This document shows, in pieces, positions 139 through 61,195 of a stretch of DNA of 64,000 bases. The notes under the pieces were generated by a model. It was not told where the DNA came from. It was given only the letters and a program-made list of their open reading frames with translations, and ran no database searches. This DNA comes from Eledone cirrhosa (taxonomy: Eukaryota). Where the stretch lies: the NCBI GenBank assembly GCA_964016885.1, contig OZ024740.1:392646001-392710000 (forward strand). Reading direction: 5' to 3'. Each line of letters starts with the position of its first letter. Position 1 is the first letter of the stretch. A program made the position numbers and the translations under genes.

Positions 139-561
<423 letters not shown>

Positions 562-793
562 TAATAAAATCTATGAAATAAAAACAAAGAACAAGTTCCT
601 TATATCAAAAAATTCATCATTTTACGATCGTTTCTGGGATGTATATGTGTGTTGGTATGTATATCATGTTTAAGATCTATGTAAAAATATTACAAATTAT
701 CAGAGAAAATATATATACCTTCACATATACATGCCGTCCTCAGAAATGATGAGATGTGTTTATTGAAAAAAACAAAGAATTGATATAAAGAGT

Positions 794-3155
794 TTGTATG
801 ATTTCACCACATATACGAACCCACCACACAACTCCTTTCTTGAAAACTTCGAGAAAGACCTATTTGACTTAATCAAACACCTCAGATTTAAGAAATATAA
901 ATCTAATTTTCAAAAGGATCTCGACTCTACCCTATTGGAACTAATAAAATCTAGCAAAGTCCACGTCCACTCTGACAAAACAGGAAATCTATACCACATG
1001 GATATTGATAATTATAATGAGTTCATTTATAAGGAACTCAGGAAAAATTATAAAAAAACAAATAATGCGGCTCTTACCAATATCAAAAACAAAACATACA
1101 ACATAGTAAATAAACTCAATATTGAAGACAGAACTGAACCTTTGGCACTGAAAAAACCACATTTTAACCCGAAAGATCACAAATCTAACTTCAACTCTAA
1201 TCCTTCTATAAGACTTATATGGCCTTCCAAGTCAGACATTGGCATTATTAGTAAAAACAAATTGGATAGAATTATCCCACAATTAAGAAAACACGTTAAC
1301 TTACCACTCTGTGAAAACACATCCCAAGTAATTAATTGGTTTTCTAATATTAAAAATAAATCCTCTGCTTCATTTCTACAATTCGATATAGATGCTTATT
1401 ATTCCTCTATATCACCCATACTCCTGAACAAAGCCTTGATATTTGCCAAAAATAGATCAGACTTAACTATGGATGACATTAATATTATCACGCACGCTAG
1501 ACAAACACTACTGGAATTTCAGAAGGAGTATTGGACCAGAAATACATATAATAATCTCTTCGACATAACTATGGGCTCTAGTGATTCTGCCCAAATAACC
1601 GATCTTATGGGCCTCTTTCTTCTATTTAACATTAATTCATCTTTCCCCCACCTTAAAGGTGGTTTATATCGTGATGACTGTCTTCTTCTATCCATTAATC
1701 TTAGCCTATCAGAAATTGAAAGAAATAAAAAACTTAGAACTTTCCTCAAAGACTATTATAATCTCACTATTACATTTGAAAACACCAGTAAAATAGTCAA
1801 TTTCCTAGATATAACTATGGACCTATCTACGGGTATCTACCAACCTTACCATAAACCTAACCAAAACTTGCATTACATACACTCACAATCCAATAACCCT
1901 AGATCTATCCTTAAAACCTAGCATATAATATCTCACTCAGGATCTCTAACCTTTCATCAAATCAGGATGTATTCGATAAAAACGCGCCCTTTTATAACGA
2001 AGCTTTAGCTAGAAGCGGCCACAAAAACAAATTAGTCTACATACCTCGCACCAATAATATTTCAAACATACAACCTAATATTACCAACAAACACCAAATG
2101 AAAAACCCACACCTAAATGCCACTCATACTACACCTAAAAAAACCAACCCAAAACTTAATTTCTCTACCTCTTCTCACATAAAATATAATGACTTTCAAA
2201 AAAACCATTCACCCTAATACTCCAACATATGTTAACAACATAACTAACAAAATTCCTAGTAATCAGACTAAAACACCTACATCAGTTAATCTAACTAAAC
2301 CTATATATAATAAAATCACTAATAGTAACTCTCTTAGTAAACCTCCTGATACATCGTATAAGAAACAATGTCGAAACCGTAATAGATGGGTTACTTGGTA
2401 TAATGCTCCATTTAATCTACAGATTAAAGACCATATCCCTAAAAAATTCTTTGCTATCCTAGAGAAAAATTTCCCACCAAACCATAAATACCATCAAATT
2501 TTAAATAGATCTACTGTCAAATTTTCCTACTCCACTACCAAAAATATACAACAGTATATAAGTGCATACAATATATATAAGTGTAAAAGAATCATAAATA
2601 TACCACCAACACATCAAACCAACCATAATGCTAAAATAAACCATAACAAACCACCATCTCCTTCACCTATAACAGGTCCTGTAAACTCCACACCAATTTT
2701 GACTAACTCCCTGATATAATATTTACGAATGGTTGTAACTGTAGAATCAAAAGAAATTGTCCATTAAAGGGAAATTGTCTTATTAATAACATAGTCTATA
2801 AATGTAAAATTAGCACTAAGGATTCCACTCATTCATATATAGGAGCTACGTCTAACTAATTTAAAGTAAGATTTAATACCCATAAACATAGTTTTAAAAA
2901 TGCCGCATTAGCTAATACAACATCCTTGGCCGAAGCAATCAATAATTATAGAAAGAAGAACATTCATTATAACCTGACCTGGAGCGTGCTTAAAAGGGCC
3001 ACCCCTTATCAAAATAACAGATACGAGTGTAGGTTATGCTCCCAAAACTTTTTGAAATCATGAAATCTAAGGATATCCTATTAAATAAGCGACAGAAATT
3101 AATTATATCTTGCAATCATAGAATTAGAAAAACCTTAAAATATTATAAACTTAAT
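794..3155 (+). pseudogene. PLE RT + GIY-YIG polyprotein, disrupted by stops and frameshifts
   Basis: ORFs 794-1921 and 2189-2719 plus an endonuclease remnant in other frames. Confidence 0.85.
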
Positions 3156-3908
3156 TAATATATACCTTACTCTTATATTTTACAAATTATTATAATTGTT
3201 TTTTTTTTATTTAGTTAACCTATAATTAGTATTTTACTACAGAGAATTTCATAATTTTATTTCCCTCTTACAGCTCTCTTTCCTTAAAATTATTTTTAAC
3301 CTCACTATTTCATTTAATCCCCTATTTATCACATTTATCACATTTATCACATTTAATACCTATGATTATTAATTATAATTAATATCCTTAATATCATCAA
3401 TGTCCGTATAGATACAATACTCTTTATAATTTTTTTTATCTATCTCAGTTTTTTCCATATATATATATTTTGTATTGCTTTAATTTTTTACTTCTTTATT
3501 TATCACATTCATATGAATTAATATAATTTTATCCCTATAAGTATACCTATCAATTAATTTAATTTCCTGTTATGTATCTAGATTCCTTGTAGTTTAAATA
3601 AGATAGGTATTTCTCACTAATACCCTTATCCCCCCCCCAATTCTTTTTCCTTCGTTTTTAACAACATTCTTTAATAATATCAAATTTTCGTGTACACTTC
3701 ACTATCTTCTTGACTTGACCTCATTTTCTCCTCCCCATTGTATTCTTTTCATTCAAAGCATTAATCTGCACTCCTCCACACCTAGATTTAATTTCTACTA
3801 CTGTTATTCTATCAACTTGACCTCTAAATCATTTCTATTGGTCAATTCAAAACCTGTTCCGAAACAGACTCTTTATATCAATTCTTTGTTTTTTTCAATA
3901 AACACATC

Positions 3909-4047
3909 TCATCATTTCTGAGGACGGCATGTATATGTGAAGGTATGTATATTTTCTCTGATAATTTGTAATATTTTTACATAGATCTTAAGCATGATAT
4001 ACATACCAACACACATATACATCCCAGAAACGATCGTAAAATGATGA
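3909..4047 (+). ncRNA. Hammerhead ribozyme with ~100-nt stem II
   Basis: Stem I TCATCATTT/AAATGATGA; CTGAGGA 3918-3924; stem II ATGTATATGTG/CACATATACAT and GGTATGTATAT/ATATACATACC; GAAA CGATCG TA. Antisense copy at about 614-752. Confidence 0.88.
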
Positions 4048-4236
4048 ATTTTTTGATATAAGGAACTTGTTCTTTGTTTTTATTTCATTGTTTTTATTAA
4101 TTTATCTCGACTCTGTTTTCCTATGACTTTTATCGTAAATTTTTGAATGCATCTCCTCTTTTTATGATATCTTCTATATTGGGATTACATTGAGTTCTTC
4201 ATACGGATTGGACACTAGCGTATATTTTGGTAGATT

Positions 4237-4960: not shown

Positions 4961-5208
4961 TAAATATAAAGGTTTACATATACATAAAGTCATAGATATA
5001 TATGTTTTGCAACCGGTCACGTTGTGGCTCAATGAAGAATTAATAAATTAAATAATCAGAGCAATATATCATGTCTTTAGAATCACTAGATATAATATAT
5101 ACCATTGCTCTGATTATTTAATTTATTAATTCTTCATTGAGCCACAACGTGACCGGTTGCAAAACATATATATCTATGACTTTATGTATATGTAAACCTT
5201 TATATTTA
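4961..5208. repeat. ~105-bp inverted repeat (4961-5065 / 5104-5208); the spacer is itself an inverted copy of 5712-5750
   Basis: Direct reverse-complement comparison. Confidence 0.92.
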
Positions 5209-5399
5209 ATAATCTCCCGTTAGGTTGAGATACAATTTGGCGATATTGGGCTGCGCTTTCTAGCACCAAGCCTACCCGCCGTAAGCAACTAATCACATCC
5301 TTTCTAACTTGACCACTGCCGCTTCACGATTCTCAGCCATTTTTGAATCTATTTTTGGCGCGATCACTTTGGAAAATTAAATGTCTAATTTTGAGTTCG

Positions 5400-5473
5400 C
5401 TCCTGATGAGTCCGAAGCTCTGGACATTTCCTGTTATTGGATGTCTTAAAATACGGACGAAACCATGGTAGAG
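5400..5473 (+). ncRNA. Hammerhead ribozyme with extended stem II
   Basis: CTC CTGATGA GTCCG...(GACATTT/GGATGTC hairpin)...CGGAC GAAA CCATGG TA GAG. Confidence 0.85.
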
Positions 5474-5753
5474 ATAATTAAGGTATGTACGCATTTCTTC
5501 TAAGTTTGAATTTACACCTAATTGTGTATAGTTGACGGCATATTTGGTCGATTTCTACATGCTGTTGAAATGTTGGATAAATACTCTATTGTGGCCACCG
5601 CGAAGAGGCCGCTTTCGGTTATTTGTCGAAAATTTCTTCATAGGAGCCTTTATTCTTATAGCTTGGTCTAATTGATTTTTTATATGGTTAATTATGCTAA
5701 TTGGGAGAGGAAATGGTATATATTATATCTAGTGATTCTAAAGACATGATTTA

Positions 5754-5846
<93 letters not shown>

Positions 5847-6003
5847 TGTGCGTGTATACATATAATTAAATAAACGTGCTCTACGGTTCTTATATATTTG
5901 ATATATATTTATCCTTATCGAGTCCTCTTTGGATTTTAGTCTTCAAATTTAATATTATTACTATTTATGTATATATTTGTATATATATACCCCCCCCCCC
6001 CCC

Positions 6004-7197: not shown

Positions 7198-7371
7198 AAA
7201 CGAAGGAGGTGTGGTAAGGAACCAGAGTATTCAATACTTAGGGTAGTAGAGTGGATAATAGGAAAATGTTTAACCCCGACGGCAGAGCTCAAACCGTTTC
7301 GACGGCTATTTCTGAACTCAAGAAATAGCCGTCGAAACGGCTTGAGCTCTGCCGTCGGGGTTAAACATTTT

Positions 7372-7376
<5 letters not shown>
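7198..7376 (-). mobile_element. PLE terminal fragment forming a 56-bp-arm hairpin (7258-7313 / 7321-7376)
   Basis: Near-perfect inverted repeat; tail homologous to 26431-26600; (TA)n on both sides. Confidence 0.75.
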
Positions 7377-7406
<30 letters not shown>

Positions 7407-7409
<3 letters not shown>

Positions 7410-7835
7410 TTTTAATATAGATGAGATTCTACAGGACTAGAACTGTTTCATTCTTTAGAAATCATAAGGAATCTGGGTATAAAAAAATAAATATGGTATT
7501 TATAGGCCTCTTCAGGTGGTAGGAGAGGGTAGGGAGTGGGATGGGTAGAGGTCATTGGTTGATAGAAAAGGGAATTCATTAAAAGCTAATTCTTTTAATG
7601 AATTCCCTTTTCTATCAACCAATGACCTACACCCATCCCACTCCCTACCCTCTCCTACCACCTGAAGAGGCCTATAAATACCATATTTATTTTTTGATAC
7701 CCAGATTCCTTATGATTTCTAAAGAATGAAACAGTTCTAGTCCTGTAGAATCTCATCTATATTAAAACTTTTATACTCTGCTATGTATTGAGTACCTTAC
7801 TTATTGTGGTTACCTCCGATTCAACCCGGAATAAC

Positions 7836-7836
<1 letters not shown>
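7407..7836 (+). mobile_element. PLE terminal fold-back (arms 7407-7585 / 7592-7770) with degenerate hammerhead and unique tail
   Basis: ~180-bp inverted arms; CTGAAGA 7662-7668 ... GAAAC 7728-7732 ... GTC; tail homologous to 8241-8302; (TA)n on both sides. Confidence 0.8.
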
Positions 7837-11973: not shown

Positions 11974-12992
11974 AGATACATACATACATACATACATACA
12001 TACATACATACATACATACATACATACATACATACATGCATGCATACATACATACATGCATGCATGCATGCATGCATACATACATACATACATACATACA
12101 TACATACATACATACATACATACATACATGCATGCATACATACATACATATATTTTGCATTATGTACTATGTTGTTTTTGCGGGCTTGTCCGCGGCGTGT
12201 AGCCCCAATATCACTGCGCCCTAAGCCTAGAGCCCATAACCCTCCCTATTCTTTTGTCACCCTAGAGCCCTTGCCTTTCCCTTCCTTTTCCGTTTTCATA
12301 ACCATAAAAGATACTTGAATTTTTTACAATAAATCTCATTTACGACATATTTTGAAATGAGGTTTTGAAGATCCAGTCGATACGTTGCTTTTATTTCACG
12401 TCATGTTTTATGGTGCGACATATTGTATATCAGTTTTACCGCTACTTTCACTCTTCTCAAACCCCCATCACTTTAAGGGACCATTTTCAAATAACAAAAG
12501 AAATAAAATTGCGGTATGTTAAAAAGGTTATCCGGTGAATCTTATTAATCCAAAAGCCATTGTAACTAAACACTTACCTTTAGTTTTATTTGTGTTCTGT
12601 TGTTCTGTGTTCTGTTGTTCTGTTGTTCTGCATTGAAACGTTTCCACAGTTTTAAACATAGAACTTAACAAATAATTAATACTTATCCAAAGATACAGCG
12701 TATATTTGAAGATTTAGAGTAGACTTAAGGTAAACATAATTACCGTTTTTTAATTGAAAGTATTAGCTTTGAAACGAATGGACAATGAAGTGTAAATAAT
12801 TTCAACTATTTCTCTGTACATAAAAATTATTTCTGATATTACTGTCTTTATCAGAGAATAACTATCCCTATGATTTCGTGTACGGAGGAATACTACAATA
12901 ACAATGCTATATATCTTGTACGGAATTTAGAAAGTACCTGAATTAATTTGGCGATGTAATTAACTTAATAATATTTAGAGCACAGATGACTA

Positions 12993-14982
12993 TATAGGGA
13001 AGATGGTGGGTTGTATGAATGTAACAAGGAGGCTTTGTTTGTGTGTATAATATTTAATTAACAATCATGGATATATATAGAACAGTATAGTTGACATGTC
13101 AAAGAAATAGATGATAGAATGAAACAAAGTTAGTAGTTACCGTTTTGATTGCCAGGCAAAGCGAGACGCCTGGCGAAGGCCAGGCGCCGGAAGGGCAAAT
13201 GAGAGGGTGAGAGCCGAAGGCTATTCGTTTTATAGGGCTCTGCCGGAAGTTACAGAAAGGGTTCTACTTCCCGTCTAGATGTTGTTATTCTATTGGGGTT
13301 GTGAGTCACAACAAGGGAGACAACCGCTACACAACCTCCCTCCAGAATTTTAGAATATAAAAATCGCATGAAATATGTAGCAAGTTCGCGAGAATGTTGT
13401 AACAGGCATGAACATTACGACAAAAGAATGTTTGCAAAAATCAATGATAGATATCAAGGTAGCCAACCGCTCTTGGCCAGAGAACGACTGGACATCTATC
13501 TATCCATCACCCAAAGATACAATGTAATAAAGTAAGAGAAGAGCTCAAAGTTCAAATGTACAAAATATAGTTCACAGGTGTGCAATCACATGACAGCAGG
13601 AAAGAAAGTGTGTTCCAGAGAATGAATGCAGGTGGTTTCTGTTCTGTGGTATATCGTGAAATTTCCAACCTCCGAATGGATTTTCTCACAGGAAGAGTGC
13701 TGCAAAAATAAATTCTCTGGCTTGTTCTGCTGGTTTTGGTTGTTTGTGAAGCTGTGTTGCTGTCTCGCGGAGTGAGCGTATTCAGTGTTTAAATTCACAG
13801 TAAAAAAATTTTTTTCAGAAAAAAAAATGAGTTGCGCAAAGTGCTAGAAATAACAGTCGAAGTTGATGGTCGATGTTGAGAATGCGTTGACCTGGAAGGG
13901 TCAAGAGGCCAGCGACCAAAGAAATAAGCATTCTGAATAAATGCGCAGTTTTCAACGGCAAATTTACGTGGTAAATTTTTAAACCGGCAAATAGGAGAAT
14001 ATAGCTTAAGGCTGAAGAATCCTTGGCGAGAAACGTTATCTCTGGCGTGCGGCTATCTCTGTGAGTCGAGATATCTCTGTGAGTCGAGAATTTGTGTTGC
14101 CCACACGTGCCAACACAAGGTTAAGCTAGGTTGAAAAAATAATATTTCTAACGCGCGAGAAAATGATAGTACAAGTGTGAAAGTGACAATGATGAAAAAG
14201 AAAGGCTTCACTTAGCATAATTAGTGGTGTGAACTTTTGAAAAAAAAACTTGAACGATGAAGAAAACGATGAAAAAAAGAAAGGCTGGTTCATCGAAAAT
14301 AAATGTTCCTGTTGAAATGTTTTTTAAAAAATATCAAATTTCTTTTTTTTTTTTTTTGTTTGTTTTGAAAGTGTTCGTTGTAAGAAACGAGAAACATATA
14401 TATATATCGTGAAATGCGACAGTTAGTTGATGCGTGAGAGAAAAAGTCTGTCTGTGCGAAAATTTCACATGTGCGTGGTGTGTTCGTTTCTTTTACTGAG
14501 TATTTTCATAGTTTGTCAATAAATTTGCTGTGTATTCGTAATGCTACTCACACAACGCCAGATTGTGCTATTTTTTTCTTTTTTCGGGGTGACCACTTAT
14601 GGCGATGAACGGCTGCGTGTTCGTATCACGTCAGTGTTACCAATTTAGGGAAGATGGTGGGTTGTATGAATGTAACAAGGAGGCTTTGTTTGTGTGTATA
14701 ATATTTAATTAACAATCATGGATATATATAGAACAGTATAGTTGACATGTCAAAGAAATAGATGATAGAATGAAACAAAGTTAGTAGTTACCGTTTTGAT
14801 TGCCAGGCAAAGCGAGACGCCTGGTGAAGGCCAGGCGCCGGAAAGGCAAATGAGAGGGAGAGAGCCGAAGGCTATTCGTTTTATAGGGCTCTGCCGGAAG
14901 TTACAGAAAGGGTTCTACTTCCCGTCTAGATGTTGTTAATCTATTGGGGTTGTGAGTCACAACAAGGGAGACAACCGCTACA
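12993..14982 (-). mobile_element. Non-coding LTR retroelement (TRIM/LARD-like, Gypsy-type ends)
   Basis: 339-bp direct repeats 12993-13331 and 14644-14982 with about 5 differences; 4-bp TSD ACTA; tRNA-Trp PBS ending at 14642; purine tract GGAGGGAGG next to the 3' LTR; no gag/pol ORF. Confidence 0.92.
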
Positions 14983-20634: not shown

Positions 20635-20664
<30 letters not shown>

Positions 20665-20666
<2 letters not shown>

Positions 20667-23328
20667 TGGGCATGATACGACGGACTAATGATTTCATCCG
20701 CAGGGTCCGATGGAAAGCTTACCATTTCGATAAGGGACCGAATACCAACGCAAAGGAATTTTCTAAGGAAAATTACGGGTTTAAATCCTGCAAAAACCCG
20801 CCAAACAACCCCGCACTCGATGCCTTCGAGTTGGACCTTATGAACATGATAAGTGAAACTAAATTTAAAAAAGGAACAAATCACAACAAATTACAAAATG
20901 ACTTAAATACACTACTAAAAAAACTAAAAGACACTAACGGTATCATAGTAAAAGCAGACAAAACATCAAACGTATACTCTATGGACATTAACACATACAA
21001 TAGCTTTATCCAGCGTGAACTACATAAAAAATATAAAAAAACAAATTAATCTACACTCACCAGCATTAACGTGGAGGGCCTCAAGATAGTTAATAAACTC
21101 GGAATTCCAGATAGGACCGAACCGCTAACCCCGTGCAACCCAACATTTAACCTGAAGGATCACAAAAATAACTTTGAAACTAACCCCACCATTAGATTAA
21201 TATGCCCATCCAAGTCAGACATAGGTAAAATTAGCAAGAACATTCTAGATAGGGTAATCGCACAAATAAAGGGTAAACTAGAAATCAATTTATGGGGCAA
21301 CACTAACGAGGCAATTAAATGGTTCAATAAAATACAAAATAGGGAGACGTGTAACTTCATACAATTTGATATAGACGACTACTATGCATCCATATCTCCA
21401 GCTACCCTAGATAAGGCGCTTATATTTGCCCAAAATAACTCTGATCTTACCCACGATGAAATTGAAATAATAATAGCGGCTAGAAGGACTATCATAAAAT
21501 TTGAAAATAGCTACTGGGTAAGAAAAGATAGGATAAATAGCTTCAATATAACAATGGGATCAAATGATTCTGCGCAAATCACAGATATCGTGGGGCTATT
21601 CATAGCACACAACCTACATAAGGAATTCAGTAACCTCCAAGGAGGAATTTATAGGGACGACACGCTACTTATAGCTAGGAACCTAAACAACCAGAGCATG
21701 GAAAGACTAAGAAAAAATATTAGAATATTCTTAAAAAAACTAGGCCTAAGTATTACCTACGAACTAAACCATAAGAAGGTAAACTTTCTAGATGTGACTC
21801 TAAATCTAAATACGGGATTAATAGAACCTTTCCACAAAAATAATGAAAATCTTGCCTACATTAGTTACAACTCAAACCACCCCAAATCCATAATTAGATC
21901 CATAGCACGTAGTATATCCCTCCGAATATCCCGCTTATCCTCTAACCTAGAAATCTTTAACGAGCATGCTGACTATTATAACGCAGCATTACGTAGGGCC
22001 GGTCATAAAGATAAACTGCAGTATATAGTGAATAAAGACAACGTAAACAATCCTAGTAACTACTACACCAACCGCTCACACAATAATAGAAATAGCTGGA
22101 CTAGACATAGGGTTAGACACGTAACACCTGGAGTAAACGGTCAAAACACTAATAACGTAAACTCAAGAAACAATAGAAGAAACAGACAAAAAAAATACCT
22201 ATGGTTCAACCCAATCTTCAACTCCTCTATAAAAACTAGACTGCCCTCTACATTCTTTAAACTAATAGATAAACACTTCCCTATCTCACATAGATATCAC
22301 AAAATACTCAATAGATTTACTATAAAACTCTCATACTCGACAGCAGCAAATATAAAATCACACATAAGCAGGATCAACCACAGAAATATCTGTAGTAAAT
22401 CAACCGCACCTATACATAACGTAGCACCAAATTATAAGCATAAACACATCACAGCATCACAACCGCAAGCGCATACAAACGCGCAGCAGCAAAACCCCAA
22501 TGGGCATATATCACAACCCACTTATAACAGAGTACTAAACAGGAATGTAGAAGCTGCACAAAATAGCGCCTCAAACTGTAACTGTCACCTACCAGATAGG
22601 TGTCCATTGGCGAACAGATGTCTCGATTCGAGCCTAGTATACATGTGCACGGTCATCTCGGATAACTCCACCTGGAATTACATAGGATCCACCGTGGGTT
22701 CTTTTAAAAAAAGATAGTATGTGCACAGGCACTCAATGAAAAACCGTGCACTTATGGGTTCCACAACCCTCGCCAAAAAAATATGGGAACTGAAGGACAG
22801 CAGCACTAACTACAGTATTAACTGGTCGAAGTTGTCGGCTGCTAAAACCTATAGTACAGGTATGTCCCACTGCGGGCTATGTGATCTAGAACTAATGTAT
22901 ATCCTCAAAAATGTAAAAAGGCTACTTAACAATAAGTTAGAAAGATCTATCTTCTGCAGACATAGAATTGCCACTAAATTCATAAGATTCAAACCTCCGT
23001 GAATCGAACCAACACAACATAGCTTTAAATTAGGATACCCACTACCCTGCATAAATCACCACAGAAATATACTCATTAAGTACACTCTAGCTTTCACAAG
23101 TCTATACCACACAAATGGCTGTAAGTACCTCATCAACCCACAAACTTATTCCTTCTCAGCTGCTGCCATCATTTGATCCTAAATCCAAGTATTTCTCAAA
23201 TCACTACTACAATGTAACTTTACCTTCCTTTTGCCATAATTACAATCAGCACGCTTATCTCTTTGCATGTATGTATATTTTTGTACGAGTGTATATTGAT
23301 GTGTATGTATGTGTCTATGTACACATGC

Positions 23329-26430: not shown

Positions 26431-26434
<4 letters not shown>

Positions 26435-26597
26435 AAAAGTGTCAGGATCCCGACGGCTGAGATCCGGCCGTTTCGACAGCTAGATCCGGAGCTCAGCCAT
26501 CGGTCCTGGCTCTTTTCCTATTACCCATTCTACTACCTTAAGTATCGAGTACTCTGGTACGTTATGGTACACCTGGTATTTTACCACACCTTCTTTG

Positions 26598-26600: not shown

Positions 26601-27864
<1,264 letters not shown>

Positions 27865-28100: not shown

Positions 28101-28480
28101 TAAAATAACAGATTAAAGTTTAAGCAAAGTACGCTGCTTTCACCCTGAACGGGATCTTCTGAAACTAACAAAGTCAAGCTGTAAACACAGAAGTGGATAT
28201 TTCAAAAAACGTTGCAACAGGAAAAAACGAATATAATACGTCATTAATAGGAGCGGTGAAAAACAATTACACGCAAAGACAGAATCATATATATAGAACC
28301 ATATATAACAAGCGCACACACATACCTAATTGTAAATACACAAATGTTCGGAGACGTACGTCAACCAAAACACGAAGTACACATATACACACATTCTACC
28401 GTTCTTATATATTTGATATATATTTATCCTTATCGAGCCCTCTTTGGATTTCAGTCTCCAAATTTATTATTATTACTATT
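28095..28480. mobile_element. CAGAAGA-family PLE end: inverted, internally deleted part (~28095-28392) plus forward tail
   Basis: Homology to 39571-40395. Confidence 0.82.
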
Positions 28481-28495
28481 ATTATTATTATTATT

Positions 28496-28843
28496 GTTCT
28501 TTGAGTCTCAGTCATTGATGTTAGTTAACTGGAAAGTTTGTTGAAATGAATATCAAGCCACTACCTGCAGCCTCAGATATTCAGGACGTATCGGAGGGTT
28601 CTTGCTGTTCCCAGCAAGCATGCCTTTTGAAGCGTTCCAAAAAGCGTGGCGGGGCCAATTTTCTTTTACCATCCATGGAAACTTTTTGAGATAGTACCTA
28701 GTGCGCCTATGACAATCGGGACCACTTTGACTTCATGGCAGTTCCAAATCCTTTTTACCTCCCACTTTAAGTCCTGGTATCGGTTAATTTTCTCCCTCTC
28801 CTTCTCTTGCACTCTCGTGTCGAATGGGCAGGCCACATCCACA
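28496..28843 (-). mobile_element. 5'-truncated copy of the R4/Dong-like element, in (ATT)n
   Basis: Close reverse-complement match to ~39193-39543; (ATT)n on both sides. Confidence 0.93.
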
Positions 28844-35002: not shown

Positions 35003-38000
35003 GGGAAGAAGACGCACGAGGTGACGGAGGTCATGAAATCGCTCCCGTAAGTTTTGAATTTTTAACATATTTAAATCATTTGTGAAATAACAACTCTTAG
35101 TACAAATGCTACGTAAAGCACCCGGCTTGAGCCCCAAAAAATTCGGACCCAAAATATATTGTTATAAGGCTCAAATATTCAAATATTCAACTTTGTATTG
35201 TACACTGTATATCCAAAAAAGAAAATGGCTATAAATGGAAGAAGAACCCCCCCCCCCCTCCTCCTCTGTCTACACTATATAGAACAGCCAAACTCACCAA
35301 CACCAGAAACTAGATACACCACCCACCCCATCACCTGTGTACACTAAACCACCACCGCTCACTACGGCCATCATTACAACCATTATCCCATCACCGCCGC
35401 CACCACCCCTTCACTCCTTCACTGCTACCACCGCTACAGCACCATCACTACAGTAATACGGTCACATCACCGCCACCACTGCCTCGGTATCGACATCACC
35501 ACCACCACTGTCTCAGTATCGCTACCGCCGCCAGTCTCCCACCTCCGCCAGCTGGCTGCTGCCACCACATTATAGAATCCCTACTGCTAAAAAAGAGGAA
35601 GGCATCAAAATATATAGATAGACTCAAAAGAAAAAAGAAAAAACAAACAAAACCAAAGCAGCACAGCAACAACAGCAAAAAACGAGAAAAACAAACAGAG
35701 AAAAACAAAAACAAAAAAAAAACAAAAAAAAAAACAAAACAAAAAACCCCCAAAACGTAAAGAAAATAAGAATGAAGAGAGAAGCAGGCGGACGGACAGA
35801 GAAGAGGGGGGAAAAACTAAAACTTAAAAAACAAAAACTAAGTCAGACATTCGAACACTACATTACAATGAAACTTATGCTTATTCATTTTTGGGGCCCT
35901 TTCTGCCTGTGTGTTTGTTTGTTTATGTGTGTTCGTATACAGCGTGGTGATAATGCCACACAAGGGCCAAGTGGAATGGCGGATCCACAGATGGATATGT
36001 AACCATACATTCGCCAATCCTCGATAAGAGTGTTTAAATATCGAACATAAACAGTTCGAATAACGGTGAAATGGAGACTAGAACGTCATGTGACAGACTC
36101 TCACCCAACAGGTGCCCCCTGGCTCAGCAGCAGGAACCTGACTGTCAACCAAATACTGCTGATGTTGGAGGAAGGAGATGAAGGAAAGGGGCCAGAACCA
36201 ACTGGACGAAAGAATTGAATAGAACTGTTATGCAATGTTACCTGAAAAGTAACCCCAAGGAGAGGGGCTACAGGAGACGGATGCATAACATCTGGAACGA
36301 GATTGGTTTATTTAAATTAGATGAACAAAAATTGGCCGGGCAGGCTCGGGTAATAAGAACTAATGGATGGATAAGCGAGATGGAACTGGAGGAACTGAGC
36401 AGAGAGAATGGCTTGGAGATGGCGGGTGTAGTATGCCAGACAAGCGAGCCAGTGGGAAATGAAGGTGAAGAGGTCCTGAGAACGGAGGAACCACCCGAAG
36501 CAGACAATGATCTGAATACTGAAATAAATAATACCTGGAACAGAGATACGGCCACTGAGGAGATGAATGCTGACGGGCTAGGACAAGATTCGGTTGACAT
36601 CCTAAATTTAGTGGTAGATGAATTGAACAATGATAGTGGGAGACCTATGAACCTAAGATTTGTAGACAGGAAAAAGTTAAAAGAAACAACAGCTAAGGTA
36701 AACAAAGTCATCCCATACCTTGAGGCGAGGAGCCTTCACCAGTGCAACAATATCCTCAAAGCAACAGCAAATACGGTGAGGAAACTACTTGGTATAAAAG
36801 CGAGAGGAAACAACAGACAAGAAAGAGCAGAGCCGTGGTGGAAGAAGCGACTGAGTGGGCAAATCGGGGAAATGAGAAATGACATAGGAAAGCTTGAGTC
36901 ACTACTGAATGGGACACTAAAAAACATAGGCACTAAAAATAGACTGGAAATAAAATACAAAACTAGGAGGAAAAAGCTAAATATTATCATAGAGGAACTG
37001 AAGCAACGCATTGTAGCAAAGAGTGCAAAAATCAGGCGATACGAGAACAGAGTCAGTCAGTATAAACAGAACCGCATGTTCGACAACAACCAGAAGATGC
37101 TGTTTGGACAGCTTGAGGGGAAAGAAAGAGGCAACGACTTGATCCCTGGGGCGGAGCAAACTAAAACATTCTGGAGAGGAATATGGGAGCAGGATGTTAG
37201 ACACAATGCCCAGGCAGGGTGGATTGAGACAGTACAGAGGGAGATCGGCGAGCAGGCACAACAACAAACTGATTTGAGTATCACAGTTGAAACTCTTAAG
37301 GGGCAGGCCAAAAAACTAACCAACTGGAAATCACCAGGCCCAGATGGTGTGCAGGGGTATTGGATTAAACATTTAACATCCCTCCACCCGAAGCTGACGG
37401 CCATGTTCAATGACTGCTTGGTGTCGGGTGAGGTGCCAGAGTGGTTGACAAAAGGTACCACAGTTCTGATAATGAAAGACCGAATCAAGGGTAATGATGT
37501 TACCAACTATAGACCTATCACATGTCTGTCCGTAATGTGGAAACTGTTGACGAGCATTGTGTCTGAGGAAATCTACCATCACCTCCACACAAACAACTTG
37601 TTACCGGACGAACAGAAAGGATGCCGAAAGAAGTCACGTGGTACAAAGGACCAGTTACTTATTGATAAGATGGTAATGGGGAATTGCAGGAGGAGACACA
37701 CTGATCTTGCCATGGGATGGATAGACTACAGAAAGGCATTTAACATGGTGCCTCATTCCTGGATCACCAAAAGCCTGGAGATCTTCAGGGTGGCAGATAA
37801 CATCAGACAGTTGCTGGGCAGGAGTATGGGGTCCTGGGAGACAGAGTTGACATCAACTGGAGTATCCTTGGGAAGCGTGAAGATCAAGAGAGGTATCTTC
37901 CAGGGAGATAGCCTGTCCCCTCTGTTGTTTGTCTTTGCCCTGATGCCCTTGACCATTATGCTGCGAAAAGTGAGAGCAGGATACAAGTTGGGAAGGGGAG

Positions 38001-39543
38001 AGCTTACCATCAATCACCTCCTCTTCATGGACGATCTTAAGCTCTTCGGGAAAAGTGAGAAGGAGTTGGATGTGCTTGTTGACACTGTCCGTATTTTCAG
38101 CAGTGATATATGTATGCAGTTTGGTATTGGTAAATGTGGAGTCATTGTGATGAAGAGGGGTAGGTTGAGCAGAAGTAACGGGATCCAGATACCAACAGGT
38201 GAGATGATAAAGGAAATTGACTCTGAGGAAGGATACAAGTATTTGGGCGTTCTGGAGGCTGATGGCATAAAGAACAAAAAAATGAAGGAATTGTTAAGAA
38301 CTGAATACATTCGGAGAGTAAGGAGCGTATTGAAGTCACATCTGAACAGCAGAAATGCCATAAGCGCAGTAAATTCCCGAGCTGTGTCTATTATTAGGTA
38401 CAGTGCGGGAATTCTGAGATGGAATGTTGCTGAACAAAAAGAAATGGATAGGAAGACTAGGAAGCTATTGACTATCTACAACATGTTCCACAAGAGGAGT
38501 GATGTCGATAGACTCTACCTAAGGAGATCTGAGGGTGGAAGAGGTCTTATCAGCATAGAGGACTGTGTTCAGATGGAGAAAAACAACCTATACAAATACG
38601 TGACCTATAGTAAGGAGCCAATGCTCAGAACTGTACTGAAGGAGGGGACAGTAGGCCAGGGGATGTCCAAGGAGGAAATAACATCAAGGAGGAAGAGCAG
38701 CCTTAAGGGAAAATCCCTTCATAGTACCTTCTTTGAGAAAACTGAATTTAGAGATCCACAGACATGGAACTGGTTGAGAAGAGGAGACCTCAAAAAGGCT
38801 ACAGAAGGAATGCTAATGGCTGCGCAGGAGTAGGCCCTCAAAACGAAGTGGTTGAAGCACCATATCTACAAGGAGGAGGCTAGCCCACTGTGCAGGATCT
38901 GTGGAGAGAGAGAGGAGACTGTGGCTCACATTGTGTCCGAGTGTAAACACCTAGCCCAGACCCACTATAAGGGCTGGAGACACGATGTGATGGGCAGGGT
39001 GATCCACTGGCACCTGTGCAAAGTAAACAATTTACCACATTCTGAGAAATGGTATGAGCATAGGCCAGAGGCGGTGATGGAGAACAATCAGGTGAAGGTG
39101 CTGTGGGATTTTAGGATACAGACGGACAAAAAACTGGAACACAATAGACCTGACCTGGTGGTTGTGGACAAAGAAAAAAGATCGTGTCTGATTGTGGATG
39201 TGGCCTGCCCGTTCGACACGAGAGTGCAAGAGAAGGAGAGGGAGAAAATTAACCGATACCAGGACCTAAAGTGGGAGGTGAAAAGGATTTGGAACTGCCA
39301 TGAAGTCAAAGTGATCCCGATTGTCATAGGCGCACTGGGGACTATCTCCAAAAGTTTCCAGGGATGGTTAAAGAAAATCGGCCCCGCCACGCTTTTTGGA
39401 ACGCTTCAAAAGGCATGCTTGCTTGGAACAGCAAGAACCCTCCGATACGTCCTGAATATCTGAGGCTGCAGGTAGTGGCTTGATATTCAATCCAACGGAC
39501 TTTCCAGTTAACCAACATCAATGACTGAGATTCAAGGAATAAC
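35002..39543 (+). mobile_element. R4/Dong-like RLE non-LTR retrotransposon between (TAA)n arrays (5' boundary approximate)
   Basis: ORF 36215-39463 with RT (QGDSLSPLLF, FMDD), CCHC (CRIC...H...C), RHD and PD-x-D RLE motifs; (TAA)n at 34953-35001 and 39548-39569. Confidence 0.9.
36215..39463 (+). pseudogene. RT-RLE ORF with one in-frame TAG at 38831-38833
   Basis: 872-aa and 203-aa ORFs are in the same frame; AAQE*AL corresponds to the usual AAQEQAL; the probable start region near 36070 is frameshifted. Confidence 0.9.
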
Positions 39544-39570
39544 AACAATAATAATAATAATAATAATAAA

Positions 39571-52041: not shown

Positions 52042-52049
52042 GCATACAT

Positions 52050-54325
52050 AGGCTAGGAAAACTATTATCAAGTTTGATAACTGCTACTGGGAACGTAAGG
52101 ACAGACCCACTAACTTCGACTTCACCATGGGTTCCAATGATTCAGCGGAGGTCACAGATATTGTGGGAATTTACATATCCCACATACTACATTGAAAATC
52201 TAATAATCTACAGGGGGAATATATAGAGATACGCGCTTCTATTAGTTAATAACTTAAATAACCAAAATCTTGAAAGGCTACGGAAAAACATTAGGAAATC
52301 TTTTAGTGAACTGGGTCTAAAAATAACGTACGAATACAATCTTAAAGTAGTAAATTTTCTAGACGTAACTCTTAATTTGAATACAGGACTGATACGACAA
52401 TTCCACAAGATAAATGAGAACCTTACCTATATTAATTTTAATTCGAATCACCCACTTTCCATGATCAAATCGGTTCCTCTAACTCTGATATTTTCAGTGA
52501 ACATGCTGAATACTATAATAACGCATTAAGGATACATTGATAAGAATCTCCATAACACACATAGCTACACACGAAATTAAGGATTATGTAACCGGGGTAC
52601 AGAAATACAAGCGCACACACGCAATACCACCAGACATACTAATAATAGAAAATCATCACCAAACTCAAATAAATTACGTTGTAGAAAGTATATCTGGTAT
52701 AATCCCATTTTTAAGGCTTCGATTAGTACAAAACTATCTCTTTCATTCTTTAAATTAATTAACAAGCATTTCCCTAATTCCCATAAATACAGTAAAATTC
52801 TAATCTCTAAGACTGTTAAGCTATTATACTCCACTGCACCAAACCTAGAAGCATACATAAAAAAACTTAACTTAAAGCAATTATTAAACAGCACTACAAA
52901 ACAAAATATTTTAGAAACAGATGGGCATAACGTAATATCAGCCTCCCAACCCACCTGAACTGTTATCCCAACCCATCCATGGTACACCTGCTACCCACAA
53001 CAAAAACTGCAACTGCCACCTACCCGAAAGATGCTCATTGAAGAATAAATGCCTAGAGTCCAACATTGTTTATCAATGCACTGTCGAATCGAACGACCAG
53101 AAATGGTATTACATTGGGTCTACCACTACCTCCTTTAAATCTCACTGGTATCGTCATCGATTTTCGATTAAACATCCCGAACACCGTTTTGTAACCACGC
53201 TCGCCAATAAGACTGGCAATTCCGTGAATGCAACCGACAGAAATGGGATAAATTATCCAGCGCTAGTGCATATCGGAGTGGATTGAAGTACTGCAGATTA
53301 TGCAACCTTGAACTCTTTTATTTCTTGAAATCCCCCAAAACTTACTAAATGATAGAATCGAACGATCGTTATACTGCAACCACAAACTGAAGGCTAAATT
53401 TTCACACTATAAAATAACTTAACATTCGAACCTGAGACTACAACACCACTTTCTCGCTAACTAATTTCACCCAATAACTAATTCCTAACTATATCCCCAC
53501 CCCTACACTGCAAGCCAGTACCCTGCTTATCCTTATAAATGGATACTTGAGTGCTATCAGCAGACTACAACTATGCACTCGATGTATACCGCCTTTCCTT
53601 CCCCTTCTCGTAGCTTTTCTCTGTCCCCTATCTCTCTCTCGCCTTCTCCCCCCCCCTCTCTTTCGCCTTCTGTCTACCTCCCTCCCTCTCCACATCTATC
53701 AACCTGCTCTCTGTGGAAATAAATAATTCCAAACTTGACAATATCAACACAATGCCTAAGTTGTCACTTTGAGAGTAAGCAATATAATAAAACCACTTGT
53801 TGGACCCTTATCACAGCATTTGATTAAGCTATCTGTATTCTTCAAACCACTCTCTCCCATTTTTCCGACCTCTACATATCTCTCTTTCTCTCTCTATCTC
53901 CCTCTCCCATTCTTTCTCTCTTCCTTTTTCTACTCTATCTTCCCCAATAACTTCCTTTAAGAAATACAAGGGAATTTACACTTTAACCATTCTGCTCTGA
54001 GGACACAGTAGGAGAAGCAGCATTTGAAAATTGTATATCTGCAAATAAATAATTGCCAATTTGCACATAGCATGACTAGGCTGTGTAACTACTGTTGAAA
54101 CATTTGTAAGCACTCGGAATAAATTACCTTTTTATGATGTCTACCTGTTTTATTATTCATTCTTTATCTACACTCCGGAATACAGAAGAATCAGGAACTG
54201 GGTTTCTTTAACTATTCTTCCATAACTCGTTGAGTAACCTCTCACCGTACGTCGACTCTATCTAGTGTAGTAATTAACCATTACTGCATTCAGGATAATC
54301 CTAATCATTTCTTGCATAACATAAT
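52050..54325 (+). mobile_element. Degenerate Naiad-type PLE, 5'-truncated
   Basis: [37 protein letters not shown] remnants related to 20665-23965; HHR and tail. Confidence 0.88.
53993..54112 (+). ncRNA. Hammerhead ribozyme with long branched stem II
   Basis: TGCT CTGAGGA C ACAGTAG...TGCAAAT..ATTTGCA...CTACTGT T GAAA CATTTG TA AGCA. Confidence 0.85.
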
Positions 54326-56384: not shown

Positions 56385-58706
56385 TGCCGGCAGGCCAACG
56401 TGCAAAATCTCACCGTCACATGTTGGCTAGTGATTTCACGACGAAAGAAAGTTAGTTGTTTACCTTTTCACAGTCAGGATGCGAGAGGCTGATTCTTCAA
56501 ATCAACGCGGGAACTTTTCCCTCAGGGCGCGTAGAGATAGATTCTCTTCTACTGGCGCTGATTGGCTGAGCTGAGCCAAATCACGCACAGAGAATGTATG
56601 TGAGCCCGCGGAATGTAGGTCACTACAATACTCTCCCTCTAGACGTAATACGTACAGATTATTGAATCAGCAGAAAAAAATGCTGAAAGAGCACATGAGT
56701 GAAAAAAAAAATTGAACAGAAGAATGCATGCAAGAAAAAAATGAGGCGCTAAGGGCCGTGTTGAGCTGCTCTGTCAAATGACTAGCTGTTTTGTAGTTTA
56801 TACGTGACCACCAAAGGTCTAACAGAAAACGGATAAAGTCTGACATGGGCGAAGTTGCTGTTCTTGCATTAAATGTTAATGGTAAATGTTGTACCAGTAG
56901 CTGTGGATGAAGCTATTATAGTAGTTTACCAGTGTTGGCAAGAAGATTATGGGTAGGTGAGAAAATGTCGGCCTCCTAGATGTATTGCCGAAAGTGCTAG
57001 GCAGCCAGGAAAAAATGGCTGGTTGCTTTGAAAAGAAAAAAGCAAGTTGAATCTGTAGGTGGATAGTAGTTGCAGTGTAAATTCCATAATTCCGGCGAAT
57101 CCACAGAAATGGTGGAAATGCTGACAAGTCCAGTTCCATTTGTTGTTTACTCAGGGACTCGGGTAAGGTAACCAGATGGAGGTTGTTATGGACGATGAGT
57201 GTGCAACGAGATGCGAAGCTGTTTGAATCCAGCTGCAATTAGCAGTTCTCGTGTTGCGGTGCCTGTTTGAATCCAGGTGAATTAAGCTCTATGAGTCGCT
57301 AGCATGTTTTTATACCTCCACCAGATGAAAAGGGATCTCGCAGAATATTACGACGCTTGGAGATCATATACTATAGACAACAACATGTTGGTGGGTGGCA
57401 AAGAAATGTGTGCATATGCAGGCATGTAATACAGCAAAGAAAATGTGTGGGTGCAGTCATATATACAATGATGAAGAAAATGATGCAGTCATATATACAA
57501 TGATAGAAAAAAATGAATTTTCATATAATACAGTTTAAAAAAAATAAATGTCCAAACATTGCCTGAAAAAAAAAGGAAGAAAGAAAGAATTGTTTCTTTT
57601 CTTTTAACAAAAAGTTCGCTTTTCTTTTCTTTGAAATTTCTTTGGATCGCTCTTACTAGGAAGCTAGTAGAATTGTTGTTGTTATTGTTAAAGCAAAGTC
57701 ACAATGAATCTTCTGTAGAATCGAAGTCGAGCGTTGAAGAGCCTAGCTTCACCAATATGGCAGTCACGTCTGACGCCATAGTGGTGAGAAGACTGATGTC
57801 TTAATTTCTCGAGACCCCGTGGTAACGAGACAGAAGATATGGTGGTTGCGTTGGTAAAATTACAAGCTGCCACATCGCCATTCCCTGGTGTTGGTTAGTA
57901 GTTAGCCATGTGTTGCTGCTGATGGCTGGTAGTAGAGAAGTACTTGGTGGTAGCCATTTTGAAATTTCCTCGTGGCGTAAATTTTTTTTATACATACACT
58001 GCCAATTTTAATTTTATTTCAAAAGGAATATTTTGAACTGAAAATATTCATCACGTCGGTGTCACCACTTTTAGCAGCGTAGTATATAAATGTTATTGGT
58101 ACATGAGTAACATAATAATGATGTCAACAGCAGGAATTAGAGATGAAATGTATGTTTATTTTTGTTGTAGCACAAATAATTGTTTCTACTTTTGGCACAA
58201 GGCCATAACTTACCCAGTGCATTACTGGTACTTTATTTTATCGACCCCGTAAGGATGAAAGGTAAAGTTAACCTCGGCGGGATTTGAACTCAGATCATAA
58301 AGGGAGGTAACTCTATGCTACAAAGCATGGTCTCCGACCCTCTACCAATACTGCCAATCCACCGCCTGTTGTAGCACAAATAATGTTTGTTAACTTATAT
58401 GGTTGAAGTTACACATAAAATAAGGTTACAAAAGGGAATGTGCTATTGTTCCAGGCCCAAGGAGGCCGGCAGGCCAAAGTGCAAAATCTCACCGTCACAT
58501 GTTGGCTAGTCATTTCACAACGAAAGAAAGTTAGTTGTTTACCTTTTCACAGTCAGGAAGCGAGAGGCTGATTCTTAAAATCAACGCAGGAACTTTTCCC
58601 TCTGGGCGCGTAGAGATACATTCTCTTCTACTGGCGCTGATTGGCTGAGCTGAGCCAAATCACGCACAGAGAATGTATGTGAGCCCGCGGAATGTAGGTC
58701 ACTACA
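56385..58706 (-). mobile_element. Second non-coding LTR retroelement; 3' LTR partly deleted
   Basis: Direct repeats ~56386-56627 and ~58465-58706 ending CTACA; PBS ATCACGTCGGTGTCACCA 58050-58067 (tRNA-Trp); purine tract AGAGGGAGAG; TSD ATCT (56381-56384, 58707-58710). Confidence 0.85.
58181..58366 (-). mobile_element. SINE inserted in the LTR with an 18-bp TSD
   Basis: TGTTGTAGCACAAATAAT at 58163-58180 and 58367-58384. Confidence 0.92.
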
Positions 58707-59447
58707 ATCTTATCTGTTTTGGAGGTCCGTAGATGTTGTCGGAGGGATATGATGTGACACACAAATGCTGTATGGCCTCTGCCTTTTTCTGCAAATTTGA
58801 ATCTAAATTCTAATAAATTTCTAGTAAGAAATGATAATTTTTATTAACCCCCGTACAAAAACGTCAGGGTAATTGAAAGTCGTTTGAGTGTTGGATACAA
58901 TAACCTCCCACCCAGGTTATCTTTGCTTGACACCTATTCAAATTCGATAAGTGCAGAGACGGAATTGTTAAAGAGTCGGACAGGATGCTTTATGGTATTT
59001 GTTTCGGCCATGTGCAATCTGAGTTCAAATCCAGCTTCCTCTTACTCGCATCAAGGTCTACATTTTCATTATATGATTTTCAAGAAGTTAGTGTGCGCTT
59101 TTAATGAGATTTGGTTGCTATTTCTAGCATGCTAAATAACTGGCTGGTTCGAAGTTTCAAAATTTTATAAGCTCGATACTTTTCTTGTTTCTGTAAGGAA
59201 ACGAAAACAGGATATACATCTCTTTCTGGATAGATCGTTCATGTATTGTAGGTAAAAAGTTTCCTGAAGATCTGGTCCCCATCTGTGATATTAAGGCATG
59301 AAATGTTCTGGTTCGAGTCATTACAGTGGATTCGAGATCGTGAACGTTAAATTCCGATTGCATATATTTTACTCGTGACTATAATGATGATGATAATAAT
59401 GATGTTTCTGATGTTGACCACGATATACTTGTTAGGGCTTCAGTTAT

Positions 59448-59523
<76 letters not shown>

Positions 59524-59647
59524 AAGAAGAAAAAAGAAAGAAAGAGAGAAGCTGGGGAAAATCAACACCAGCAGTTGATTGTTACATTATTTTATCCATC
59601 CTGGAACGATGGAAGACAAATCCTTGGTGGTAGTTGACCTTAGAACG

Positions 59648-59841
59648 CAAAGCACCAGAACACATGTCGCAAGGTAATTTAGCCGACTATCTAACTATAC
59701 GGCTGCTTATCAATCACCTTTTGTCATTATTAGAAGATACTTGACCACTCATGATTTTAAAAATCATGTTCAGTTAAAAAGGATTTTTAAATAATTAAAA
59801 TATACACAGACATAATATAATGTAAAATGAAATTGGAAGGC

Positions 59842-59893
<52 letters not shown>

Positions 59894-60087
59894 GCCTTCC
59901 AATTTCATTTTACATTATATTATGTCTGTGTATATTTTAATTATTTAAAAATCCTTTTTAACTGAACATGATTTTTAAAATCATGAGTGGTCAAGTATCT
60001 TCTAATAATGACAAAAGGTGATTGATAAGCAGCCGTATAGTTAGATAGTCGGCTAAATTACCTTGCGACATGTATTCTGGTGCTTTG
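59648..60087. repeat. 440-bp near-perfect palindrome centred on (AT)24
   Basis: Arms 59648-59843 / 59892-60087, one mismatch seen (59661 vs 60074). Confidence 0.95.
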
Positions 60088-61129
60088 TGACCACGCTCGC
60101 CAACAAGACCTGGCAACTCCGTGAACACAACCAACAGTTCACCTTAAAATGGGATATACTTTCCAGCGCAAATGCATATCGGAGTGGTTTGAAGTACTGC
60201 AGGTTATGTAACCTTGAGCTATTTTACATACTAAAATCCAAAAACAAACTACTTAACGATAGAATTGAACGATCATTATACTGCAACCACAAACTAAAAG
60301 CTAAATTCTCTCACTATAAAATAACTTAACATTCGAACCCGTAACTACAACACCACTTTCTAGCTAACAACCTTCTCTTCTCCCCCACACTACAAGACAA
60401 TACACTGCTTATCACTATACATGGTAACTCAGTACAATTCCTAGATTACTACTACAAAACCAAAAGTTCACTCACCACATATACTTTATCTGTCCCCTCT
60501 CTACCTATATATCTCTCTCTACATCCATTACACTCTCTCTCTCTCACCTTTGACCTACCTCCCTCTCAACATCTATGAACTTGACCTCTGGTGCAATAAA
60601 TAATTCCGACCTCAACTATCTACGCATCTCTCCAAGAGTAACTAATAAAACCCCTACCATAACATTTTGATTAAGATATCTACAAGCCACTCTCTCCTAC
60701 TTCTCCAACCCCTGCATATATTTCCTTCTCTCTCCATCTTCCCTACTTTTCTCTCTTCCTGTTCCACTCTATCTTCCCCAACAACCCCACTTAAGGGTTT
60801 TTACATTGTATATTTACCATTCTGCTCTGAGGAAACAGTGGTCACAGCATTGGATATTCGAGTTCTGCAAATACTTGTGAATTTGCACGTAGCGGAACTA
60901 GGCTGCAGTACCACCGTGGAAACACTTGTAAGCACACGGAATAAACTACCTTTTTATGATGTCTACCTGTTATTATTCATTCTTTATATACACTCCGGAA
61001 TACTGAAGGATCAGGAACTAAGTTTCTTGAACAATTCTTCCATAACTCGTAGAGTAACCTCTTACCGTACGTCAACCATATCCAGTGTAGTAATTAACCA
61101 TCACTGCATCTTGGATAATCCTATACCTA

Positions 61130-61130
<1 letters not shown>
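60084..61130 (+). mobile_element. 5'-truncated Naiad-type PLE
   Basis: GIY-YIG C-terminus (TTLANKTWQL..CRLCNLEL..CNH) and 3' UTR homologous to 53188-54300; ends in (TA)n. Confidence 0.9.
60823..60934 (+). ncRNA. Hammerhead ribozyme with long branched stem II
   Basis: TGCT CTGAGGA A ACAGTGGT...ACCACCGT G GAAA CACTTG TA AGCA; paralogous to 53993-54112. Confidence 0.82.
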
Positions 61131-61161
<31 letters not shown>

Positions 61162-61195
61162 GGGTGTCTGTGACCTGTATACACTGGTTACAGAT

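Follow-up and report, generated by a model that had tools for sequence, protein, structure and literature searches.

A palindrome of host flank beside the 5' end of a Penelope-like element in Eledone cirrhosa: a probable case of target-end fold-back at an (AT)n tract

L1 insertions occasionally carry a short foldback inversion of the sequence upstream of the target, and one study describes 3 + 1 such cases (0.3% and 0.1% of insertions, respectively; 52 to 220 bp) (PMC10191854). A second L1 study describes two reciprocal-end inverted duplications in which a 3' end annealed to itself, in one case via 2 bp of TA/AT (bioRxiv 10.1101/2024.12.14.628481). The snap-back 5' junctions described for R2 contain cDNA in antisense orientation and, more rarely, target DNA in that orientation (PMC11371274). 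Among Penelope-like elements (PLEs), the Hydra clade is described as having a (TA)n target and an endonuclease at the C terminus, whose conserved E and N residues are surrounded by CxxC and CxH motifs (PMC8557442). The integration of PLEs, including how their inverted structures arise, is poorly understood, and target-site duplications (TSDs) are mostly unreadable where the target is a microsatellite.

The locus described here lies in a 64,000-nucleotide stretch of the E. cirrhosa genome (contig OZ024740.1), i.e., the window, to which all coordinates refer (forward strand unless stated otherwise). A left arm (59648 to 59843) and a right arm (59892 to 60087) surround a pure, self-complementary (AT)24 tract (59844 to 59891). 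The arms are 196 bp each and are complementary without gaps at 195 of the 196 positions (99.5% alike; self-BLAST E value, 1.6e-175), the sole mismatch being C59661 versus A60074. Since the tract is self-complementary, the palindrome has no spacer. Its predicted DNA fold reaches -251.8 kcal/mol (compared with -43 ± 4 kcal/mol for 100 shuffles); the inverted repeat is far beyond chance. A sequence-only reading had reported a 196-bp inverse repeat around (AT)24, and the self-BLAST and the fold bear this out; its description is right in position and length, but the arms are not identical, differing at one position. No similarity was detected between the arm and any PLE copy in the window, again as that reading had maintained.

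The right arm abuts a 5'-truncated PLE with Hydra-clade features (60084 to 61129), which consists of the C terminus of an endonuclease (an open frame of 81 codons, 60084 to 60329, with CxxC..E and CxH motifs) and a 3' noncoding part. The match to another PLE copy at 53188 (53188 to 54303; 72.6% over 1,145 columns) begins at 60084 and stops at 61123, and an imperfect (AT)n tract starts at 61130, where the PLE had been said to end in (TA)n. The last base of the PLE is approximate. We compared positions 59892 to 61195 with Logan contigs from 4 of the 10 listed sequencing runs (i.e., X1, X4, X5, and X8; best share, 0.59), with positions 61120 to 61195 excluded; X4 and X5 come from one sample (S4). 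Family sequence upstream of 60084 was taken from a 98%-identical contig (462 bp; record 1 of X1; 9 differences and 2 gap letters) and from the loose ends of seven X5 contigs. This sequence is endonuclease coding sequence, unlike the arm, and departs from the arm at 60083, so that the overlap between arm end and PLE is exactly 4 bp (TTTG, 60084 to 60087), in agreement with the microhomology proposed earlier.

The 81-amino-acid fragment has the CxxC and CxH motifs flanking the conserved E and N. A search with a longer relative in the window gave 277 matches, among them at least 120 homologues, mostly of 500 to 800 amino acids; the few named sources among those listed are a sea cucumber and a coral, and the fragment aligns with the C termini of 95 of the 120 homologues listed. 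Further motifs are carried by relatives in the window and were lost by truncation from the studied copy, i.e., CxCX5C in the 72%-identical copy at 52046 to 54303 and RWK, DKT, and CxCX5C in the copy at 20664 to 23003. The presence of (AT)n on both sides of the PLE corresponds to the (TA)n insertion trait of the Hydra clade. At the Pfam cutoffs, none of the four proteins searched matched GIY-YIG or any informative family. On the basis of its motifs and its (TA)n target, the studied PLE appears to match the Hydra clade, with which it shares the CxxC/CxH endonuclease and the target; relatives in the window carry the RWK, DKT, and CxCX5C motifs. The studied PLE differs in that a motif search found no canonical hammerhead core in the studied copy, and its placement is one by motifs only. 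A core-like motif is found at 53997 in the 72%-identical relative, and pattern matching located others at 257, 11294, 14012, 25539, 43817, and 50763, which are candidate PLE-type ends. Rfam returned no hammerhead family in the window, where all 102 matches at E values up to 1 fell below the gathering score; a microRNA gene was rejected, these matches being hairpin or microsatellite chance matches. Copies of the PLE family also end at 60990 in TA repeats (14 and 11 contigs; 142 reads). This position marks another 3' end of the family, about 140 bp upstream of the one at this locus. The distance exceeds the 30- to 40-bp tail described for PLEs, and the second end recalls an Anolis element with two reported initiation sites (PMC11167929).

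The polarity of the duplication can be read from an old dispersed repeat at 59568 to 59723 (reverse strand; nhmmer E value, 1.6e-12; model positions 7 to 164), which we call SINE-like by appearance; the profile was built from six window copies of this repeat of about 200 bp. The repeat spans the left boundary of the palindrome at 59648, yet it is cut at the end of the right arm. Its parts inside the left arm (z = 4.8) and outside it (z = 13.7) both scored above all dinucleotide shuffles in pairwise comparisons (0 of 500 in each case), while the 83 bp past the right arm showed no significant similarity to the repeat (416 of 500 shuffles). The in-arm half alone gave no nhmmer match and contributes 17 bits to the score across the boundary. 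At the mismatch site, the letter of the left arm is that of all four readable SINE-like copies (two of the six could not be located by motif). Because the repeat is continuous on the left only and the left letter is ancestral, the left arm is the original host flank and the template of the duplication, and the right arm a later, inverted copy that was cut off at the PLE and that bears a single derived change at 60074. The old repeat and the ancestral letter thus uphold the proposal that host flank was duplicated. The left arm does continue outward, as had been claimed, but what was called ordinary flank consists of two older repeats.

The inner part of the left arm (59755 to 59843) is the end of a high-copy repeat adjoining the (AT)n tract, as judged from contig depth. 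The summed depth is 20,000 to 53,000 over the corresponding positions of the right arm (59892 to 59979) versus 10 to 14 over the outer arm, where the outer 107 bp is represented by a single contig per run (X4 and X5; depth, 9.64 and 14). Other copies of the inner 89-bp repeat are about 88 to 90% alike, one of them with adjacent (AT)n, and, according to a consensus of the loose ends from 21 contigs (agreement, 0.64), the family leaves the window sequence behind 59980. The tract had taken up this older insertion before the PLE. At the 5' junction of the high-copy repeat, a putative 5-base inverted copy (59750 to 59754) forms part of a near-palindrome of 19 bp (59750 to 59768) and is a possible miniature snap-back.

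Behind the PLE, the imperfect (AT)n tract (61130 to 61161) is followed by GGG (61130 to 61164 in total), which is the same arrangement as that of the center tract and the first three bases of the right arm. Of the window's 58 (AT)n tracts, these two alone have GGG behind them. The chance of this coincidence is 0.7% from base composition, and, in an empirical null, 144 of 3,306 cross-pairs of tract flanks match over at least 3 bp (4.4%, a value inflated by compound microsatellites). The occurrence of (AT)n-GGG on both sides is suggestive of a TSD and probably is one. Since (AT)n and GGG flank the insert on both sides, the notion of an inverted duplication in place of a TSD finds no support. We infer that the empty site had the form CCC-(AT)n-GGG, i.e., a hairpin closed by a three-pair clamp, and that the cut was located in the (AT)n tract. 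The center tract is of the same (AT)n type as the tract behind the PLE 3' end, and the fold-back point lies at self-complementary bases; the locus offers a rare view of the position of a top-strand cut.

We consider it probable (about 0.6) that the end of the cut target snapped back on itself at (AT)n, primed the copying of about 196 nt of its own strand, and was then joined to the PLE cDNA by microhomology. The GIY-YIG endonuclease would have cut in the (AT)n of the empty CCC-(AT)n-GGG site, and reverse transcription would have been primed from the bottom-strand end; copies of the family end in TA repeats. At the upstream end, the partner strand would have been resected or displaced, so as to leave a 3' (AT)n tail, probably with GGG, that could pair with its own CCC-(AT)n. 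The end would then have copied about 196 nt of its own strand, and the product is present as the right arm. This copy ends at the TTTG overlap with the truncated element, to which host microhomology-mediated joining may have linked it. Replication would have opened the hairpin into a palindrome, with (AT)n-GGG now on both sides, and one substitution would later have hit the new arm. Product, polarity, overlap, and target can be read from the locus, and the order of the steps is our reconstruction. The right arm stops exactly where the family homology starts, with four shared bases, which counts for fold-back and joining; a spacerless center is the expectation for a self-complementary primer, and the same product in the same size range in L1 also argues for fold-back. 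The snap-back proposed in the sequence-only reading stands as far as the flank copy and the microhomology join are concerned, but a replaced TSD finds no support and the mechanism, being known for L1, is not novel.

At the contig level, the form with the left arm only was recovered in two of the four runs (one sample), and the junction between arm and PLE was seen in none of the four among the matches listed, so that independent support covers part of the structure. X4 and X5 have one contig each on 59981 to 60087, with one difference from the right arm, and these contigs run on for 134 and 150 letters without a match to the PLE. They are most simply left arm plus flank, because the lengths of their extensions end in the (GA)n tract at 59449 to 59549. 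In both runs, the depth over 60024 to 60067 is that of the single left-arm contig (9.64 and 14), and X8 and X1 give zero cover of this interval. X8 is a RAD data set (a PstI site lies 110 bp from the junction) whose reads end at AATT sites. X1, which carries a different organism label, contains copies of the PLE family; its only match in the arm is a 35-bp piece whose two ends are loose, and no orthologous flank was found in it. The contigs have been graph simplified in ways that are not specified, and they show presence only and cannot prove absence. An unbroken left-arm contig is therefore not readable as absence of the insertion. The left-arm-only contigs are compatible with polymorphism of the insertion, with pruning of a branch, or with an artifact, and S4 may be another individual without the insertion. 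An empty site was not seen bridged in the contigs of the four runs among the matches listed.

The absence of the junction from these matches, together with a sample that has only the left-arm form, is what an artifact of assembly or library (i.e., a fold-back or amplification chimera) would produce. However, a substitution separates the arms, with the ancestral letter on the left; the inverted part ends at the exact 4-bp family microhomology, with the PLE frame intact; and both the graph simplification and the possible origin of S4 from a noncarrier weaken the negative result. We regard an artifact as quite improbable. The arms might also represent a MITE present in many copies or part of the PLE in inverted orientation (i.e., an ordinary inverted pLTR), as the high copy number of the inner 89 bp and the standard occurrence of inverted 5' copies of own sequence in PLEs (described in PMC8557442 and PMC3846280) would allow. 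A MITE would be multicopy as a whole and have conserved ends, but the outer 107 bp is single copy, and the outer end sits within half of an old repeat that continues on the left only; the upstream sequence of the family is endonuclease coding and unlike the arm. These observations largely refute both forms, which we reject as highly improbable.

The sequence by itself does not separate fold-back during integration from a switch of the cDNA end or from later repair. In the latter case, the PLE would have inserted normally, and a later break in the (AT)n tract would have been followed by fold-back synthesis and by a TTTG join that deleted the 5' part of the PLE. An (AT)n tract is a hairpin-forming fragile site, and these events would give the same sequence. 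The arms are 99.5% alike, yet the comparison of the PLE with its family has 135 difference rows (i.e., dozens of positions unlike most copies), which would suit a young arm beside an older element. Few of these differences are private to the studied copy, however, so that the ages need not differ. Among 40 of the 135 rows, five positions (60592, 60636, 60720, 60725, and 60736) keep the letter of the window at <1% of depth in X4 as well as in X5; two of them (60592 and 60720) are private also against all or all but one of the X8 raw reads. Two to five private changes in 1,046 bp predict 0.8 to 1.9 differences between the arms, and one is observed; the probability of at most one difference would be 0.11 with 10 private changes and 0.005 with 20. 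The ages of PLE and right arm are compatible in this rough test, which covers 40 of the 135 rows. In addition, a long palindrome extends from just 1 of the window's 58 (AT)n tracts (the next longest is 14 bp), and it abuts a PLE 5' end. Later repair is thus unlikely in our view. In the remaining alternative, the 3' end of the truncated cDNA would anneal at TTTG to the upstream bottom strand or to the sister chromatid and copy 196 nt toward the cut, after which the (AT)n would anneal to the top strand; the order of events is reversed and the product is the same. A class of R2 insertions has the cDNA end priming on nearby target DNA (PMC11371274), and the loop of another inverted repeat in the window (4961 to 5208) is the inverse of the 36 bp behind the adjacent insert, as expected from copying of an intact target if its arm is flank. 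Against this, pairing over just 4 bp would have to suffice for invasion of a strand that would be lost to resection, and there would be no need for the GGG match; the L1 study prefers end remodeling and joining (bioRxiv 10.1101/2024.12.14.628481). We judge such a switch unlikely and retain fold-back of the target end as the preferred reading.

Four further inverted structures occur at PLE-like inserts in the window, and fold-back repair of 5' ends looks common there, although only the arm at 59648 to 60087 is shown to be host DNA. A near-complete Hydra-like PLE (559 to 4102), next to (TA)64, is preceded by 239 bp of its own 3' end in inverted orientation (an inverted pLTR, 559 to 797 versus 3864 to 4102; 5 differences in 239). 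At 7408 to 7769, 178-bp inverted arms with three differences and a hammerhead-like core, likely to be element sequence, have a 65-bp repeat end and then (TA)35 behind them (7408 to 7836 in total); the arrangement resembles a snap-back of cDNA between a pair of TA tracts. A head-to-head pair at 26799 to 27688 (394 bp; 14 differences; 96% alike; 101-bp purine-rich spacer), the right copy of which ends in (TA)n, probably represents two 3' ends of one element. The perfect inverted repeat at 4961 to 5208 (about 105 bp; 38-nt loop) lies directly before an insert with a hammerhead core at 5403 (5209 to 5711), and its loop is the inverse of 5715 to 5750, between this insert and (AT)26 (region 4961 to 5754); it may be another fold-back of flank or else a PLE tail in inverted orientation combined with a template switch. 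Two related GC-rich hairpins bounded by AGGAAAA/TTTTCCT (7261 to 7373 and 26432 to 26518) each touch a TA tract, have 52 bp of adjoining sequence in common, and are a candidate repeat end. A long LINE-type open reading frame (36182 to 39569) and a truncated copy (28467 to 28843) both end in (TAA)n by a repeat of the type at 5877 to 5973, which suggests a preferred target. The window also contains direct repeats at 56386 to 56629 and 58465 to 58708 (244 bp; 96.7% alike; 2.1 kb apart) and at 12992 to 13331 and 14643 to 14982 (340 bp; 98.5% alike).

One locus says little about frequency. It is nevertheless conceivable, though doubtful, that (TA)n-targeting PLEs of the Hydra clade make inverted host-flank copies routinely, above the 0.3% of L1, as the target itself is a hairpin. 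If this were true, cleavage would perhaps act on a hairpin or cruciform form of the target and work best on hairpins closed by a CCC/GGG clamp; the PLEs, with their hundreds to thousands of copies, would keep supplying these genomes with spacerless palindromes of host sequence; and the 105-bp inverted repeat at 4961 to 5208 would add another case within the same 64 kb. Host palindromes are unstable and can yield hairpin RNA. The inverted host DNA also links the resolution of PLE 5' ends to the host end repair proposed for L1.

Among PLEs, inverted 5' copies and pLTRs resemble this locus in that an inverted repeat lies at the 5' end of a truncated element, joins show microhomology, and self-priming has been proposed; they differ in that the inverted sequence is the element's own there and host flank here (PMC8557442 and PMC3846280). 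We found no PLE with duplicated host flank in the open full-text literature searched (main texts), and the available portions of PMC9977147 and PMC13282606 make no mention of flank duplication. The R2 snap-backs are attributed to priming by the cDNA 3' end and come from engineered insertions in the rDNA of cell lines (PMC11371274). The L1 foldbacks share with the present locus an inverted upstream flank at the 5' junction of an insertion made by TPRT, and the inverted segment here is likewise host flank and not element; the extra synthesis of 52 to 220 bp in L1 compares with 196 bp here, or 220 bp with half the tract. They differ in that they concern somatic human L1, while the present case involves a GIY-YIG PLE at a microsatellite target in an assembled animal genome (PMC10191854). 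The reciprocal-end duplications of L1 share self-primed synthesis, ligation to the reverse transcription end, and a retained TSD-like duplication, and they differ in using small hairpins in unique DNA rather than a long (AT)n tract with a possible CCC/GGG clamp (bioRxiv 10.1101/2024.12.14.628481). The mechanism is therefore already known from L1, including the size of the copy and TA/AT priming. The locus is probably a real, young example of this known rare outcome and apparently the first such case noted for a PLE.
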